From a virus, in the IMG/VR virus record IMGVR_UViG_3300032073_000003, positions 32,001 through 96,000 of that record: DNA of 64,000 nt, one strand, 5' to 3'. Position numbers and translations under genes: made by a program. Under the pieces are notes generated by a model. The model did no database searches. It saw only the letters and a program-made list of their open reading frames with translations, and had not been told where the DNA came from. Of the stretch, positions 39,876 to 45,664 are shown piece by piece (the stretch's first letter is position 1; the number at the start of each line of letters is the position of its first letter).

Positions 39876-40251
39876 GTGTTGATTATTGGTTAACAATTGA
39901 AGCTAAACTTTTGAACAAACTCTTAAGCTTCTTTAACATTGATTTATAATAATATACAAAAAAAAGATGAGGATTGCAAAAGTACTACTTCTGTAGGAGG
40001 GTTATTACCCCCTCTGTGGTATCATCCATATTTCTAAACTATATATTTCAAGTTGTATACTTTAGGTTGTGGTGAGGCCTTAATAAAATGATCCCGGGGT
40101 CTGCCAACAAGTTGGTCACCCCCCTTTGTTCTACAAGATCATTTTTCATATTTGCTCATACAAATCTTTTTTTTCTGCTGGCAAAAAAACATCTGCCTGA
40201 ACAAACAACAGCTAACCCTGAACTGGCATAGTAACCATTAACATTAATACT

Positions 40252-40563
40252 ATGAAATTTATCAGAGACAAATTTATAACAGATAATGTCTTTATCTGTT
40301 TACAAGAAAATGAACGCTTTGTCACATTTTATTGTGCCAAACACAAACCTTTCACCAAACCTGTTGGTTATGTTGAAAGAATGTTTGACATTCCTGAGTT
40401 TAAGAACTCGGAATTTCATACTAAAGATGCAGAGGATGAATCCTCTCACATCTGTTTTACCATATCATATAAGTATTGGACTGGGTCCAAACTTGATGAT
40501 AACGGTAAACCGTATCAAAATCTCTCAATCAAAGATTGGGATTTTATGGAAGAAGACTCTTAG
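40252..40563 (+). CDS. Early hypothetical protein
   Basis: 103 aa, preceded by motif copy 1 and followed by a terminator hairpin (40550-40570). Confidence 0.65.
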   Translation: MKFIRDKFITDNVFICLQENERFVTFYCAKHKPFTKPVGYVERMFDIPEFKNSEFHTKDAEDESSHICFTISYKYWTGSKLDDNGKPYQNLSIKDWDFMEEDS

Positions 40564-40652
40564 TCTTCTTTTTTTTTCCTTGTACAAATAACTTGATTTC
40601 CCTCTCTTTTGCTAACCCTTCACTGACACTGTATAACTAAAAAACAGATATT

Positions 40653-41030
40653 ATGGTACAAGAAACTAAATGCATTAACATTGACGGCAATCAGGTAATA
40701 GACTTAACTCCTGATTATAACAGACCACTAGCACTGGTTGACTTAACAGTTCTTAATAAACTTACTGATTTACTACCTAAAGGAAACTTTACTAGTATCA
40801 GACATGGTTTAAGAGGACAAATAATGGATACTAATAACTTACAGGAACTTGTAAAGGTTGCTGAAGACTTTGTTACATTTCACAATTCCGTAAACCTCAT
40901 AAGAGAGGTAAGCTCACGTGAACTGAACACAAAGGAACAGGAAACTACAGAACCTAAAGTTATTGGTAAAATAGACCTAGGAAACTTGGACAATAATTCT
41001 TATGAAAAGAATGAATCATTTGCTCCTTGA
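40653..41030 (+). CDS. Early hypothetical protein
   Basis: 125 aa, preceded by motif copy 2. Confidence 0.65.
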   Translation: MVQETKCINIDGNQVIDLTPDYNRPLALVDLTVLNKLTDLLPKGNFTSIRHGLRGQIMDTNNLQELVKVAEDFVTFHNSVNLIREVSSRELNTKEQETTEPKVIGKIDLGNLDNNSYEKNESFAP

Positions 41031-41160
41031 TTAGGATTACTAACAATTAACTGGAGACATGTTACTAATAAAGGTAACATGTTTCTTGTTTCTTATAATC
41101 CCTTTTTTTTTCTAACCCTCAACTAGACTTGTTAACATATAAACTAATAACTTAAACATT

Positions 41161-41598
41161 ATGGCAAATTTAAAAGCTACAAGAAGTGGAAACTATGTAC
41201 GTAAAGATGGTGACCACAAAGGCAAAACATTCTTTACGTATGACATAACTGGGTCTAAAGAAGACATGAAGAAATTCACTGATTCCCCAAACTTTAAACT
41301 GTATCCAAGACACAGTGCAACTGGAGTACCACAGATACATACAATGTACATGGACCCGTTACGTAAACAGAATCCACTGTATCAGAAACAAGATGGCAGC
41401 TTTACGTTGGACCAATCTGAGACAAGAGATGACTTGGGAGTGTTACAAGCACTGAGAGAACAGGCACCTGAATTGGTTGCAGGTTTCACAGCCGTGGTAC
41501 TGGAAAAGTCATTTGGAACACCAAAGGCTACAAGTATGCTTGCACCTGAACCTGTAACTGTAACAGGTAAAGAGGCAGACTTGACTGACGTGAGCTAG
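41161..41598 (+). CDS. Early hypothetical protein
   Basis: 145 aa, preceded by motif copy 3. Confidence 0.7.
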   Translation: MANLKATRSGNYVRKDGDHKGKTFFTYDITGSKEDMKKFTDSPNFKLYPRHSATGVPQIHTMYMDPLRKQNPLYQKQDGSFTLDQSETRDDLGVLQALREQAPELVAGFTAVVLEKSFGTPKATSMLAPEPVTVTGKEADLTDVS

Positions 41599-42061
41599 AT
41601 TACTAGAACAATAACAGGATACATATAACGTGTATCTTGTTACTTGTTTCACAATCCTCTTTTTTTCTAACCCTCTACTAGAACTGTATGCAACACTAAA
41701 GTGTTGTGTTTTTTTGTAATGTGATTAGTATTAAGTATAATACTATTGTATATTGCAAAGGGTTACAGAGTTATTTCTATAGAAGTAGTAGAGTATTGGT
41801 TACTCCATACAAATAACAAAATGTAATTCATTGATATTTAATGTTTTAGTCACATGTCTACAGTACGTGGAGACAAATAAATTAAATACTCTAAATAATT
41901 AACAGAAAACACTAAGTTTTTAGTGTTAATGTGTGTGTTATAGTGTTATTGAGTGCTAAACTACTCCACTATCTATACTCTTGTGTAAACTTACATAAAT
42001 ACCTTAAAACATCTATTACTATTAATATATATAGCTAACTTATAACTAAATACAAGAAATT

Positions 42062-42286
42062 ATGAAACAGATTACTTACTATGGTATTGGTGATATAATA
42101 CCTTTAAAGCTTATTCAGTCTATTAATGATTACTATAATGAAGTAGGAATTAATAGCTTCTGGGATTTTATTTATCATGGAGGTTTCCCAGAATATGTAG
42201 AAGCGTATATTCATCCGTCTGATGATATGCGTGATACTCCAATGTTTAACGAAATACAACAAGCATATATTAGTGCTTATGTATAG
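42062..42286 (+). CDS. Hypothetical protein
   Basis: 74 aa ORF with an A-rich upstream region. Confidence 0.5.
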   Translation: MKQITYYGIGDIIPLKLIQSINDYYNEVGINSFWDFIYHGGFPEYVEAYIHPSDDMRDTPMFNEIQQAYISAYV

Positions 42287-42637
42287 GAGATGTCTTTACT
42301 CCTTTCTTTAAAGACAATTAAATCTAATTACTTCATTCTAATATGCTGAATAGACCTGACTAGTCTTTAACAAGAATGATTATGTAGTTATATATATCTG
42401 TTAGGACATACCAAAAACCTTTAGCAAGTTTTGTAGTCCGTTAGCCTTATATCTTTCCTATGTTGGTAGCTTAGTGGAGAGATTATATTTATACAACTAA
42501 ATTCCTACGAAGTTCTTTCTTATGTTTTACGAGAAAAGATTATGCAAGTAGGTGCGTAATCTTTTTTTATAAATATTTATTATTCAATAGAGAAATGAGT
42601 CAAGCAATACCAATAAGCACTCTATTGATATATATAT

Positions 42638-42717
42638 GCCATTAAAGCTCTTTTAAGAGTTAGATGACACGTCTAAATAATATGACAGGGTAAGTTTGAA
42701 TCTTACTAGTGGCACCA
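42638..42717 (+). ncRNA. tRNA-like element (degenerate tRNA or tRNA mimic) with encoded CCA
   Basis: 7-bp acceptor GCCATTA/TAGTGGC, discriminator A, CCA. T-arm GTAAG-TTTGAAT-CTTAC abuts the acceptor strand. D-like GCTC/GAGT arm. The anticodon arm is non-canonical. Confidence 0.55.
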
Positions 42718-42850
42718 AAAAAACCAAAACATCAGTTCCTATTTAAACTATAAATAGAGAAGTTGTGTACCAATAGAGTTTGAAATTACAATCAGGACAA
42801 TTATACTGACCGTCCGTAATTTGGTCTCTATTGTTAAGCAACATAAAACC

Positions 42851-42878
42851 AAGGAGTGTGTCTTCGGATGCACTCCTT
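42851..42878 (+). other. 12-bp hairpin with cUUCGg tetraloop
   Basis: AAGGAGTGTGTC-TTCG-GATGCACTCCTT, with two G-U pairs. Confidence 0.75.
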
Positions 42879-42906
42879 TAACATGTAACCAATAAATAAC
42901 AGATAT

Positions 42907-43149
42907 ATGAATGCAAAAATGATTACATCAGAAAAAGTTAACAAAGTAATTACAATTGAAGATTGTAAAGAAATGAATTCAGTTAATTCTCAATTAATTG
43001 AATTAACTCAAACACTCTATAAAAAAGAGTTAACATTTAAACAAATTAATAAGATATGTGCTATGTCTTATTTAGATAAATTATGGTTAATAGCACAATA
43101 TAAAGTTGATCTTAGAATAGATAGTTTACCGGATTTATCTAATCTATAA
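42907..43149 (+). CDS. Hypothetical protein
   Basis: 80 aa ORF embedded in the structured block. Confidence 0.5.
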   Translation: MNAKMITSEKVNKVITIEDCKEMNSVNSQLIELTQTLYKKELTFKQINKICAMSYLDKLWLIAQYKVDLRIDSLPDLSNL

Positions 43150-43153
43150 TCAT

Positions 43154-43279
43154 TACAAACATAAAAAGTTCCTATTATATAAACATAGACAAAAATACTT
43201 TTCGTTTGTAACTTTATCAGAAAGACATAGAAAGTTCCTATTTAAGCTATAAATAAGAAAAATACTTTCCGTCTTTCTG
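43154..43279 (+). ncRNA. Two tandem homologous long hairpins with compensatory substitutions
   Basis: Copies at 43154-43210 and 43218-43279 share the layout stem/ATA-vs-C bulge/RAAAGT:ACTTTY/TCCTAT...AAAAT. Confidence 0.55.
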
Positions 43280-43391
43280 TGTTAAAATACCATTTCAACT
43301 TCCCAAGGGTTGACAGTTTTATACTGAGTATTGAGGGGCACACTTATTATACACTTATTATATATTTATTAAACACTTAAAAAACAAAAAA

Positions 43392-45182
43392 ATGAAAGAA
43401 ATTAAATTGTTTGGCAAAGCACTAAACACAAAAAACGTTAGTCCAATTGAAGTAAATGAATTAGCAACTGTAAAAGGATATGTAGTACATCCTGATTGTT
43501 GTAATGAAAGAGTAATGACATTTTTGTCATCTATTCCTAATAATTACAATACTAGTTTTTACGCGTCTGTTGCAGATGTTGTAGAAAAGGATAGAACTGA
43601 ATTACTTATAGATCAGATTTTACATTATGCATCTACATATGGTACTGAATATGCAGGTCAAGTATTTGTTCCTAATGAAAACTTTGGTCTTATTGATGAA
43701 CCTATAATTGATTTTAGTGATTGTAAAGTTATTGAACCTATTACTGTAGAAGAGATTACTGAAAAAATTACTCAATTATTGTCTTCTGGTATTGCAATGA
43801 AACAAGATACATTAACTAATATTTTTGATTTGATTTCTGAATTCTTTATTGATATAAATCCTGAAGATGTTAAGAATATTGAAGCAAAAATGATGTTATT
43901 TAATTTATTAGGTGTTTTACCTAGTAATCCTGAAGAATTTGTTAGATTGATGATATATAAATTAACTGATTCTACTCTTGTTATTAAGAATAGACAATTA
44001 ATTAATAGTATTAAACATCAACAAGATAATCAACAAATTATTGGAGTTTGTGATGATATAGAGCAATTTGGATTAGAAAAGTTATCTTCTGTTTTCTTTA
44101 GATATAAACCAATTTTTCTTGCATTAAGAGGTTTAAGTTCTGATGCTCGTAAGATTACTAATAAATTAAGAAAACTTGCTAATAAACATCATAAACCATT
44201 TGTTTCTGGTTATTGGGAAACTATTCTTAGTAAAGATACTTTAGAGGTTAATGAATTTCTAAAAAAATCTAAAGACTTATCTAACTTTAAGTTAGTAAGG
44301 TTGATTAAGGCTATTGATGGAAAACTTACAGATACTGAATCTGAATTCTTTCTTATCAGAAATGGTAAAAGTTTTATTAAAGATACTACAGATAATGTAA
44401 AAAATGATAAAACTTTACTTTGGATGAAAAGTATGTTAGAAATTACTCTTATTCAAAACATTTCAGAAAAAGTTAATGGTAAAACAATAAAATTACCTGA
44501 TAATATACGACTATCTATTCCTACTTCAGAGAAAACATATGTAGGTAATATACCATTTGGTAGCTATATCATTCCTTCAAAAAGTAATTCTGTTTTTGGA
44601 ATTAATTGGTTTGGGGAAGATGGAGCTCAAGATTTGGATTTATCTTACATATCTTTAACTGGTAAAAAGTATGGATGGAATGATCGTTATAGTTCAGATA
44701 CAAATGATATTGTTTATTCTGGAGATATGACATCTGCTAATCCTGAAGCTTGTGAATATATGTTTTGTAAAAATGGTCTTGAAAATGGAATTATATCTGT
44801 TAATGTATATAACGGAAAAGATAATTCTAAATATAGATTTTTTATTGGTCAAACTAATAATGATTTTACTGTAAGTAGTAATACTCCAGATGAAAGCATA
44901 ATAGATTTTTCTACATCATTAAAAATTACAGGTGAAGCCTGTATTGGATTTTATATAGATGGAAGAATATATTTTGCAGATTTAAATCAAGGTTCATCTT
45001 CAGTTAGTCGTATAACACTAAATACTCAAAAAATGATTCAGTATTTTATTGATACTAAAGATTGTTTTTTGTATTGGGATAATATATTACCAATGGCAGG
45101 TGCTAATATAGTTACTGAAGGTAAATGTGATATTGATTTAAGTAATGGTGACGTTACTGAAATAATATCATTATTAGCATAA
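43392..45182 (+). CDS. Helical (ROT/TROVE-like) protein with C-terminal TerD-like domain
   Basis: 596 aa. 'QILHYASTYG' N-terminal motif, helical middle, TerD-type 'GINW.G....DLDLS' and 'YSGDMTSA.P.ACEY'. Architecture recalled for the Prok-RING_4-associated family, with no RING Cys cluster here. Confidence 0.6.
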   Translation: MKEIKLFGKALNTKNVSPIEVNELATVKGYVVHPDCCNERVMTFLSSIPNNYNTSFYASVADVVEKDRTELLIDQILHYASTYGTEYAGQVFVPNENFGLIDEPIIDFSDCKVIEPITVEEITEKITQLLSSGIAMKQDTLTNIFDLISEFFIDINPEDVKNIEAKMMLFNLLGVLPSNPEEFVRLMIYKLTDSTLVIKNRQLINSIKHQQDNQQIIGVCDDIEQFGLEKLSSVFFRYKPIFLALRGLSSDARKITNKLRKLANKHHKPFVSGYWETILSKDTLEVNEFLKKSKDLSNFKLVRLIKAIDGKLTDTESEFFLIRNGKSFIKDTTDNVKNDKTLLWMKSMLEITLIQNISEKVNGKTIKLPDNIRLSIPTSEKTYVGNIPFGSYIIPSKSNSVFGINWFGEDGAQDLDLSYISLTGKKYGWNDRYSSDTNDIVYSGDMTSANPEACEYMFCKNGLENGIISVNVYNGKDNSKYRFFIGQTNNDFTVSSNTPDESIIDFSTSLKITGEACIGFYIDGRIYFADLNQGSSSVSRITLNTQKMIQYFIDTKDCFLYWDNILPMAGANIVTEGKCDIDLSNGDVTEIISLLA

Positions 45183-45189
45183 TTCTTAT

Positions 45190-45218
45190 AGGTAGGGTGT
45201 AAAAACCCTATCTTTTTT
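45190..45218 (+). terminator. Intrinsic terminator
   Basis: AGGTAGGGT-GTAAAA-ACCCTATCT plus T-run. Confidence 0.7.
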
Positions 45219-45229
45219 ATAAATTTAAT

Positions 45230-45664
45230 ATGATTACAATGAAAACAAAAGAAAAAGCAATTATTGTTGATGTAGATGGTACATTAGCAGATATGAGAGG
45301 TATCAGAGGACCTTTTGATTGGAATAAAGTTTTACTAGATAATCCTCATCAAGATGTTATTGACCTTGTTAAAGATTTAGCAAGTCTTAAAAAATATAAA
45401 ATTATCATTACTACAGGTAGAGATGGTTCTTGTATGCAAGATACTGTTAAGTGGTTAGATAAATATAAAATTCCTTTTGATGATTTTTATATGAGACCTG
45501 AAGGTGACTTTAGAAAAGATAACATTATTAAGTCTGAAATCTATATGGATTTTATCAGACCTAAATATGATGTTAAATTTGTAGTTGATGATAGAAATCA
45601 AGTTGTTGATATGTGGAGATCATTAGGTTTACGTGTATTACAAGTAGCACCAGGAGACTTTTAA
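45230..45664 (+). CDS. HAD-family polynucleotide 3'-phosphatase (T4 PNKP/PseT C-terminal domain)
   Basis: 'IVDVDGTLA', 'ITTGR', 'MRPEGDFRKD..IK.E', 'VDDRNQVV.MWR.LGL.VLQV'. Confidence 0.85.
   Translation: MITMKTKEKAIIVDVDGTLADMRGIRGPFDWNKVLLDNPHQDVIDLVKDLASLKKYKIIITTGRDGSCMQDTVKWLDKYKIPFDDFYMRPEGDFRKDNIIKSEIYMDFIRPKYDVKFVVDDRNQVVDMWRSLGLRVLQVAPGDF

Follow-up and report, generated by a model that had tools for sequence, protein, structure and literature searches.

Tandem bulged hairpins upstream of a helical-TerD protein gene in phages and Bacteroidota: candidate Y-RNA-like partner RNAs

Among bacterial RNA-repair operons, Ro60 (Rsr) is so far the sole well-studied protein with dedicated partner RNAs that mimic tRNA, the Y RNAs; what it does is still unclear. 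YrlA is a tRNA mimic with a closed acceptor stem, and its "anticodon" stem runs into the Ro-binding stem (PMC4201824; bioRxiv 10.1101/312249). The Ro/Rsr-binding motif, GNCGAAN0-1G or GGUCCGA, sits in the 5′ strand of the YrlA terminal stem (PMC4201824). YrlA is encoded next to Rsr and the RNA ligase RtcB, following the logic of an rsr-yrlBA-rtcBA operon (PMC7790460). The subject of this study is a pair of tandem hairpins, copies A and B, in a phage genome. The stretch of DNA analysed, called the window below, is 64,000 nt long and comprises bases 32001-96000 of the 119,466-bp IMG/VR virus record IMGVR_UViG_3300032073_000003, which has direct terminal repeats. The hairpins lie upstream of a gene for a 596-amino-acid (596-aa) protein that joins a large helical domain to a TerD-like domain; they are probably Y-RNA-like cognate RNAs of this protein and possibly operators in its leader as well.

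How does this locus compare with what is known? As with Ro60 and the Y RNAs, one to four small structured RNAs lie on the same strand as, and within a few hundred nucleotides of, one gene for a large protein. The RNAs likewise combine a handle stem with a tRNA-like module that is circularly permuted and not always present (it comprises a T arm, a D arm, and a capped acceptor stem); the loci are linked to RtcB ligase and end-healing enzymes; and the system is present in phages. The components differ, however. The partner protein is not of the TROVE plus vWA type but helical plus TerD, and the stem has AWA/C bulges and a G-UUCCU strand instead of the Ro-binding motif. A second comparison is with leader operators. 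The Escherichia coli thrS leader contains two hairpins that resemble tRNA anticodon arms just upstream of the ribosome-binding site and acts as an autoregulatory operator. Here, too, the gene for the putative binder has two or more similar hairpins immediately ahead of its ribosome-binding region. Unlike thrS-type operators, copies can also follow the gene, sit between tRNA genes, or lie at a distance from it, and they may carry entire tRNA-like modules.

Copies A and B (Table 1) are separated by a gap of 7 nt and are about 70% alike. In both, an outer stem is followed by an ATA bulge, a 6-bp inner stem, TCCTAT, and a variable apex of 21 to 28 nt, and the 3′ half returns through AAAAT, the inner stem, a single bulged C, and the outer stem; the apex of copy B folds as a hairpin of its own. 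The preliminary description of this DNA had reported two tandem hairpins of equal architecture, and the sequence is as it stated, with fold and family model in agreement. The predicted + strand folding energy is -18.3 kcal/mol for copy B (z -5.0; matched by 0 of 200 shuffles) and -8.2 kcal/mol for copy A (z -2.8; matched by 4 of 200). The two-part pattern AGTTCCTAT-N5-25-AAAATACTTT has two occurrences in the window, where 0.00 would be expected, and the same two sites are the only ones in the entire 119-kb phage genome. A covariance model from other phages scores copy B at 77.4 bits (family model, 77.4/73.3 bits) and copy A at 61.8 bits (E 2e-11). An intrinsic terminator was considered for A and B and rejected: a terminator scan placed sites only at 45190-45213 and 44927-44943, and no T-run follows either hairpin. 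The third, partial copy that had been proposed at 42734 stands as a 23-nt match (96%; 42734-42756) to the hairpin GUUCCUAUUUA...UAAAUAG at the apex of copy B, and it has a fold of its own (-10 kcal/mol, z -3.8), but it does not stand as a family member: it is without the bulged stems, and family model R2 gives no match at E ≤ 5. A relative (L003/L151) has an element resembling it ~200 nt upstream of its hairpin pair.

Do the hairpins belong to a wider family? The initial IMG/VR scan, with the 16-mer ATARAAAGTTCCTATT, gave mostly single chance matches among the matches listed, and the two-part pattern was used instead, yielding 39 loci. At the first loci derived from the pattern, the hairpins lie directly 5′ of a 580- to 660-aa open reading frame (ORF) homologous to window 43392-45182. 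The relative L003, for example, encodes a homologue with 56% identity to the 596-aa protein and has the same hairpin pair upstream, with different, compensating outer stems. In a 34-copy alignment, the outer helix, which is free of the search pattern, has 75 cells changed on both sides versus 29 in shuffles. Models R1 and R2 reach more divergent copies, and there the inner helix covaries too (e.g., AGAAGU/ACUUCU and GGGGGU/ACCCCC). The final alignment comprises 132 distinct copies, mostly gathered from the protein side. Both-side changes are seen at 14 of its 15 base pairs, so that the compensatory stem changes first described between A and B hold family-wide; 86.6% of cells are paired, versus 64.8% in shuffles and at most 46.7% in slid-partner controls, and the covariation score is 0.63 versus 0.22. 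The covariance model built from the copies, a step that the preliminary description had proposed, finds many viral and bacterial homologues. A lack of further homologues was to have spoken against a repeated RNA motif; because homologues are abundant, that objection falls away.

The nearly invariant positions among the 132 copies are A15, G25-U-U-C-C-U, A152-C153, the bulged C158, and the C14:G159 pair. C14:G159 closes the outer helix, A15 is the first A of the bulge, and A152-C153 stands opposite the top of the inner helix. The asymmetric loop has the consensus 5′-A(U/A)A opposite a single C, and the 6-bp inner helix ends in G-U/A-C and opens into a UCCU(A)(U) strand. The ATA-opposite-C bulge and the loop entry, which had been called constant in the two window copies, are thus nearly invariant across the family. 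The apex may be only a few nucleotides long, a hairpin capped by UUCG or GNRA, or an entire circularly permuted tRNA-like module of YrlA type, and apical inserts are frequently capped by cUUCGg or GNRA. Which strand folds? In the well-paired core, G-U/U-G cells number 36 versus 5 for A-C/C-A, which indicates that the folded strand is the gene's strand. Judged by these sequence comparisons, the hairpins are structured RNA and neither a DNA palindrome nor a terminator.

Three readings of the conserved loops were tried by eye and set aside. A K-turn would have tandem G-A pairs after the 3-nt bulge, and there are none; the U...A spacing of a T-loop is missing; and pairing of UUCCU with a Shine-Dalgarno sequence does not serve as a general explanation, the phage leader being without an AGGA-type site. 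Rfam has no match at gathering scores anywhere in the window, and at E ≤ 10 the region 42250-43420 gives only chance matches of the snoRNA/miRNA type.

The hairpins are coupled to one gene. Starting from the protein only, with the hairpins ignored, 79 viral loci were collected and then searched with the hairpin model (cutoff, E ≤ 0.005). All 124 model matches lie on the gene's strand (124/124); 111 are no more than 1.2 kb upstream of the gene, 10 are just downstream, and 3 are further off. At least one copy is present at 69 of the 79 loci, with one copy at 27 loci, two at 33, three at 5, and four at 4. The gap from the last copy to the start codon is usually about 12 to 40 nt, or 13 to 41 nt in the viral loci, and any Shine-Dalgarno sequence present follows the copy immediately; in this phage, copy B is 113 nt from the gene start. 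In a bacterial scan covering one genome per prokaryotic species, the gene was found in dozens of Chryseobacterium species as well as in Aquimarina, Algibacter, Mesonia, Muribaculaceae, and other Bacteroidota. Hairpins are just upstream of it at 30 of 30 bacterial loci tested, and in five whole Bacteroidota genomes (3.3 to 8.3 Mb) 12 of 12 model matches fall within ~320 nt upstream of the gene.

Not all copies are in leaders. Some are wedged between tRNA genes, abutting them (L016, L112, L144, and the cyanophage S-CBWM1), and 8 of the 132 copies are within 15 nt of a same-strand tRNA gene. Copies follow the gene in Synechococcus phage S-CRM01 and in L214, L167, L160, and L199. In G003, a hairpin set lies 13 kb from the gene, and in some records, which are fragments, hairpins occur in tRNA arrays with the gene 13 kb off or not found. 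Two contigs of 170 to 180 kb that carry the gene and upstream hairpins (L236 and L246) come from metagenome-assembled genomes labelled Methanobacterium sp. and Candidatus Borrarchaeum; in L236, tRNA genes flank the protein gene and hairpins. These contigs are probably viral, though hosts other than bacteria are possible.

The company kept by the gene points to RNA repair. Directly 3′ of the 596-aa gene is a PNKP-type phosphatase, an RNA 3′-end healing domain, and tblastn places a PNKP neighbour at three related viral loci as well (L159, L165, and L168). When DNA similarity was searched against 50,697 phage records, the sole match was 57 nt long and lay in PNKP. In Chryseobacterium sp. KCF3-3, the gene order is a WYL regulator and HopJ (divergent), the RtcB RNA ligase, three hairpins, and the helical-TerD gene. 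RtcB adjoins the gene at 54 of 80 genome loci, and a WYL regulator is present at 48 of the 80. RtcB is upstream in Chryseobacterium and downstream in Aquimarina, Algibacter, and the uncultured flavobacterium L278, which indicates that the linkage survives rearrangement. In two cultured cyanophages, the homologous gene, annotated as a ~610-aa "hypothetical protein" (S-CRM01 gp174 and S-CBWM1 gp22), is the main protein gene within a large tRNA array, and hairpin copies flank it on both sides and also stand between tRNA genes; tRNA genes are found at 22 of 61 protein-side viral loci.

Table 1. Coordinates of the hairpins, the partner gene, and related features; positions are those of the window unless a locus is named.
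Feature	Position	Strand	Basis or details
Hairpin RNA copy A	43154..43210	+	sequence, fold, family model
Copy A, outer stem	43154-43160 / 43204-43210
Copy A, inner stem	43164-43169 / 43197-43202
Copy A, ATA bulge	43161-43163
Copy A, UCCUAU	43170-43175
Copy A, C bulge	43203
Hairpin RNA copy B	43218..43279	+	sequence, fold, family model
Copy B, outer stem	43218-43226 / 43271-43279
Copy B, inner stem	43230-43235 / 43264-43269
Copy B, ATA bulge	43227-43229
Copy B, UCCUAU	43236-43241
Copy B, C bulge	43270
Partial relative of copy B apex	42734..42760	+	23-nt repeat, own fold
596-aa partner protein gene	43392..45182	+	AlphaFold2 model, fold and profile searches
Terminator-like hairpin with T-run	45190..45213	+	just 3′ of 596-aa gene
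Stand-alone PNKP-type HAD phosphatase	45230..45664	+	PF25109 E 5e-49, phrog_505
KCF3-3 chromosomal operon	L270 1-7710
S-CRM01 (Synechococcus phage) locus	L234, 128691-138043
S-CBWM1 locus	L235

The likeness to Y RNAs is clearest in the longest members of the family. Their apical insert contains an anticodon-arm-like hairpin, a T arm, a loop-closed acceptor-like stem, and a D arm, arms that together make a circularly permuted tRNA joined to the conserved stem. The Rfam YrlA model (RF02553) matches long members at 46.1 and 39.2 bits (E 2.6e-7 and 2.5e-5), below its gathering score of 69, and more partial matches to the YrlA core occur near those members. Only the tRNA-like core aligns (model positions 23-86), leaving the Ro-binding stem unaligned. 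A GTTCRANNC T-loop is present in 6 of 133 copies, and full tRNA-like modules are found in L231 and L173. Copies A and B represent the smallest form, with a stem and no tRNA-like module, and the region 42250-43420 gives no YrlA match even at E ≤ 10. The Ro-binding motif in either form is absent from A, from B, and from the 132-copy consensus. KCF3-3 also has a true TROVE (Ro60-like) gene 0.5 Mb from the helical-TerD gene with no hairpin of this family beside it, and the hairpin model finds nothing beside true TROVE genes.

What kind of protein is the partner? The AlphaFold2 model of the 596-aa protein is confident, with a predicted local distance difference test score of 92 and a predicted template modeling score of 0.89. 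Its N-terminal ~390 residues are helical, and fold searches with the full model and with this domain alone return only short, generic helical matches (Z ≤ 6.9). Residues ~396-549 have the TerD fold, matching 2qz7_B (Z 9.2 over 134 residues, root mean square deviation 3.0) and 2kxt (Z 8.0), and Foldseek assigns 3ibz to the C-terminal domain with a probability of 1.00. DLDLS and SGD-type motifs are carried by the TerD domain of the family. Pfam TerD (PF02342) has no match at E ≤ 1 in the 14 family members scanned, and in the Atlas a TerD-bearing cluster is only a weak neighbour of the protein (score 0.90). The C-terminal ~150 residues thus share the fold of the tellurite-resistance proteins 2qz7, 2kxt, and 3ibz; unlike in those proteins, the domain is fused to a large helical domain and has no Ter-operon neighbours.

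Clustering at 50% identity leaves 2140 representatives of this large family, and 1209 of these score E ≤ 1e-30. Pfam gives no match for it at E ≤ 1 (14 members), PHROG none except one at 0.0066, and PDB sequences nothing against the family profile at E ≤ 10. Its nearest described relatives are the MXAN_6230/SCO0854 RING proteins (NF041916), to which 4 of 14 members match weakly (best E, 9.5e-7) and the window protein does not; a structural neighbour in that family was found in the Atlas with a template modeling score of 0.66 over 519 residues. Those proteins are ~1000 residues long, whereas the ~600-aa proteins have no RING domain by Pfam scans. The family is probably a distant, RING-less relative of MXAN_6230/SCO0854. 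Could it be a Ro60 in disguise? That identity was rejected: Pfam TROVE has no match at E ≤ 1 in 14 members or in the 119-kb phage genome, with control genomes matching as they should, and hhalign against the true TROVE protein of the same Chryseobacterium genome gives a probability of 0.1. The C-terminal domain is TerD, not vWA, and no Ro60 chain is in the fold-search lists for the full model or the N-terminal domain alone, a result that leaves room for a remote relation.

How might the parts work together? Hairpins A and B may be two genes, or two leader-borne copies, of a conserved RNA read from the + strand. The helical-TerD protein would recognise the bulged stem and the UUCCU strand, and the resulting particle would act in the repair or quality control of RNA, probably tRNA. 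It would do so alongside RtcB in Flavobacteriia and alongside the PNKP-type phosphatase, perhaps with a host ligase, in this phage, following the logic of Ro60 (Rsr) with Y RNAs in rsr-yrlBA-rtcBA operons. Since the last copy is close to the start codon, the same protein-RNA contact may also throttle translation of the gene, making the hairpins an autoregulatory operator. Copies could be excised from leader or tRNA-array transcripts. The hairpins could be released as free small RNAs, serve as a leader operator, or do both. Pointing to free RNA are (i) copies between tRNA genes, (ii) copies downstream of or far from the gene, (iii) tRNA-like inserts, and (iv) the variable copy number; pointing to an operator are the leader-only position in bacterial genomes and the closeness of the last copy to the start codon. 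The preliminary description had offered the adjacent 596-aa protein as one possible partner of the motif, and covariation, strand, and gene coupling speak for that part of its proposal; from them, we infer the binding. More tentatively, and only as one possibility, the pair may be a second Y-RNA-type ribonucleoprotein (RNP) system, independent of Ro60, that senses, shields, or repairs cleaved tRNAs with RtcB and PNKP.

Several observations weigh against cognate, Y-RNA-like RNAs. At 10 of the 79 viral loci there is no hairpin copy. The phage itself is without RtcB and without an Rnl2-type ligase, and the window is free of tRNA and tmRNA genes by ARAGORN. Fold searches recognise no RNA-binding fold in the N-terminal domain, and TerD domains are usually treated as binders of Ca2+ or nucleotide derivatives (PMC7159879). 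Bacterial copies are leader-only, ending ~12 to 20 nt before the start codon, and a cis-only element fits them equally well. RNA contigs of two marine metatranscriptome studies share a start at 43299, 20 nt past hairpin B, and extend across the gene. Of the hairpins themselves, only the part up to 43179 is covered, by one low-depth contig, so that no stable small RNA is seen; this is no evidence of absence, since such contigs would miss small RNAs. The shared start itself speaks the other way, if weakly (the libraries may contain DNA), by hinting that a separate mRNA begins past the hairpins.

Those starts fall inside a second conserved leader element, at 43296-43341, between hairpin B and the start codon. 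In it, the loop UUCCCAAGG is closed by a CAAC/GUUG stem and followed in turn by a CAGU...ACUG hairpin and GAGGGG; the element recurs in L018/L159, in L114/L156 (with a ~150-nt insert), and in L003/L151 (twice). The first stem covaries (CCAAC/GUUGG, UCUAC/GUAGA, CUCAC/GUGAG), and UCCC in the loop could form a pseudoknot with the downstream GGGG.

Could the hairpins act purely in cis, with no free RNA? They would then be a translational operator, for autorepression or for another factor, or a tandem riboswitch-like sensor of a small ligand, such as a nucleotide derivative related to those that TerD binds; even with the two versions taken jointly, this is unlikely. It is the natural reading of the 111 of 124 viral copies that lie within 1.2 kb upstream on the gene's strand with the last just before the start codon, and of the five bacterial genomes, where every copy is leader-located and none is elsewhere. 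Conserved internal loops with variable stems, moreover, resemble ligand-binding RNAs. A leader element does not account for copies between tRNA genes where the gene is absent from the locus or 13 kb off, nor for the copies downstream of the gene in S-CRM01, L214, L167, L160, and L199. A copy number of one to four and entire tRNA-like modules in the apex also fit it poorly, and the RNA contigs of two studies start past hairpin B rather than including it.

The contig starts lend themselves to another explanation, that the hairpins are processing or stability marks for host RNases (RNase P, Z, E, or III) with no specific tie to the function of the protein. Such marks would release and protect an mRNA embedded in tRNA-array or operon transcripts, as might be suggested by the 8 of 132 copies that abut same-strand tRNA genes within 15 nt, by the copies on both sides of the gene in some phages, and by RNA contigs that begin 20 nt past hairpin B. 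A general host signal should mark many genes, and only two copies exist in this 119-kb phage; the same loop, moreover, is found in phages of cyanobacteria, Bacteroidota, and other hosts and in chromosomes, solely beside one gene family. We regard processing marks as improbable.

The window has a G+C content of ~29%. At ~40 kb its genes switch from the - to the + strand, and the minimum of the cumulative GC skew coincides with this switch (window ~40000-42000). The hairpins, in a gene-poor stretch ~1 to 3 kb from the switch and the skew minimum, might be elements of DNA: a single-stranded hairpin for a recombinase or replication protein (attC- or origin-like) or an inverted-repeat protein site. 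The attC sites have a bulged-hairpin architecture with variable stems, which these hairpins recall, and the - strand of copy B folds more stably than the + strand (-24.6 versus -18.3 kcal/mol). A DNA-level role is nevertheless very improbable. The orientation is constant relative to one gene in phages and chromosomes, and a double-stranded site is ruled out, since G-U pairs greatly exceed A-C pairs when the gene's strand is read. UUCG and GNRA caps and tRNA-like inserts indicate RNA; in Flavobacteriia, the element is inside an RtcB operon, and no recombinase is linked to it. Least credible of all, to the point of being negligible, is a type III antitoxin- or CRISPR-like array, the decoy that the preliminary description had offered as its other option: tandem RNA units do stand directly 5′ of a protein gene in a phage-related context, as in ToxI-like systems, but the two units share a conserved core only and differ in their stems, unlike near-identical antitoxin units or the identical repeats of CRISPR arrays, the 596-aa helical-TerD protein is unrelated to and much larger than a ToxN-type nuclease, the neighbours are RtcB, PNKP, and tRNA genes, and there are no cas genes, no Cas families among the neighbours, and no meaningful PADLOC match.

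Other structured elements lie in the gene-poor 1-kb stretch around the hairpins. At 42637-42717, a cloverleaf fold followed by ACCA (-20 kcal/mol, z -2.5) has an acceptor stem, a D-like arm, a short anticodon-like arm with a 3-nt loop, and a T arm. ARAGORN does not call it, and it has no Rfam tRNA or YrlA match at E ≤ 10; possibly, it is a tRNA-like RNA in its own right that belongs to the hairpin-gene module. In metatranscriptome run X17, the summed contig depth is ~89 at 42534-42650 versus 2 to 9 in the adjoining bins, and this peak may reflect an abundant small RNA around a hairpin at 42585-42627 and the start of the tRNA-like element. At 42771-42878, upstream of an 80-aa ORF (42907-43149), a long nested hairpin is followed by a 12-bp hairpin capped by cUUCGg (-36.3 kcal/mol, z -4.9). 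Elsewhere, positions 869-932 of L167 match the Rfam freshwater-1 RNA below threshold (38 bits versus a gathering score of 72).

No paper on this RNA-protein pair was found in a search that did not extend to Burroughs and Aravind 2016 or to the 2020 review of bacterial Ro60. Beyond general reviews, no paper was found that links TerD with TROVE, RtcB, or Y RNA, and the literature searched held nothing on SCO0854/MXAN_6230, including no function for that bacterial family. A 2026 preprint on three families of tRNA mimics covers other Rfam motifs. Set beside these sources, the Y-RNA-type modular design and genomic logic, combined with an unrelated protein and a different RNA handle, appear to be new here.

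Two large unannotated families are defined by this work, a protein family of more than 1200 clusters at 50% identity with no Pfam or PHROG entry and an RNA family without an Rfam entry. Cultured carriers, including many Chryseobacterium species and the cyanophages S-CRM01 and S-CBWM1, are ready test systems, and the family gives a lead on why phage tRNA arrays hold one conserved large gene of unknown function. If the hairpins are indeed Y-RNA-like partners of the protein, the design of Y RNAs would have been reused, by convergence or in modular fashion. The helical-TerD protein would grip the bulged "G-UUCCU" stem, and the free apex would sometimes show a permuted tRNA mimic. Bacteria would use the RNP in a WYL-regulated repair operon, and in many phages, often from a position within the tRNA array, it would sustain translation during attack by host anticodon nucleases.

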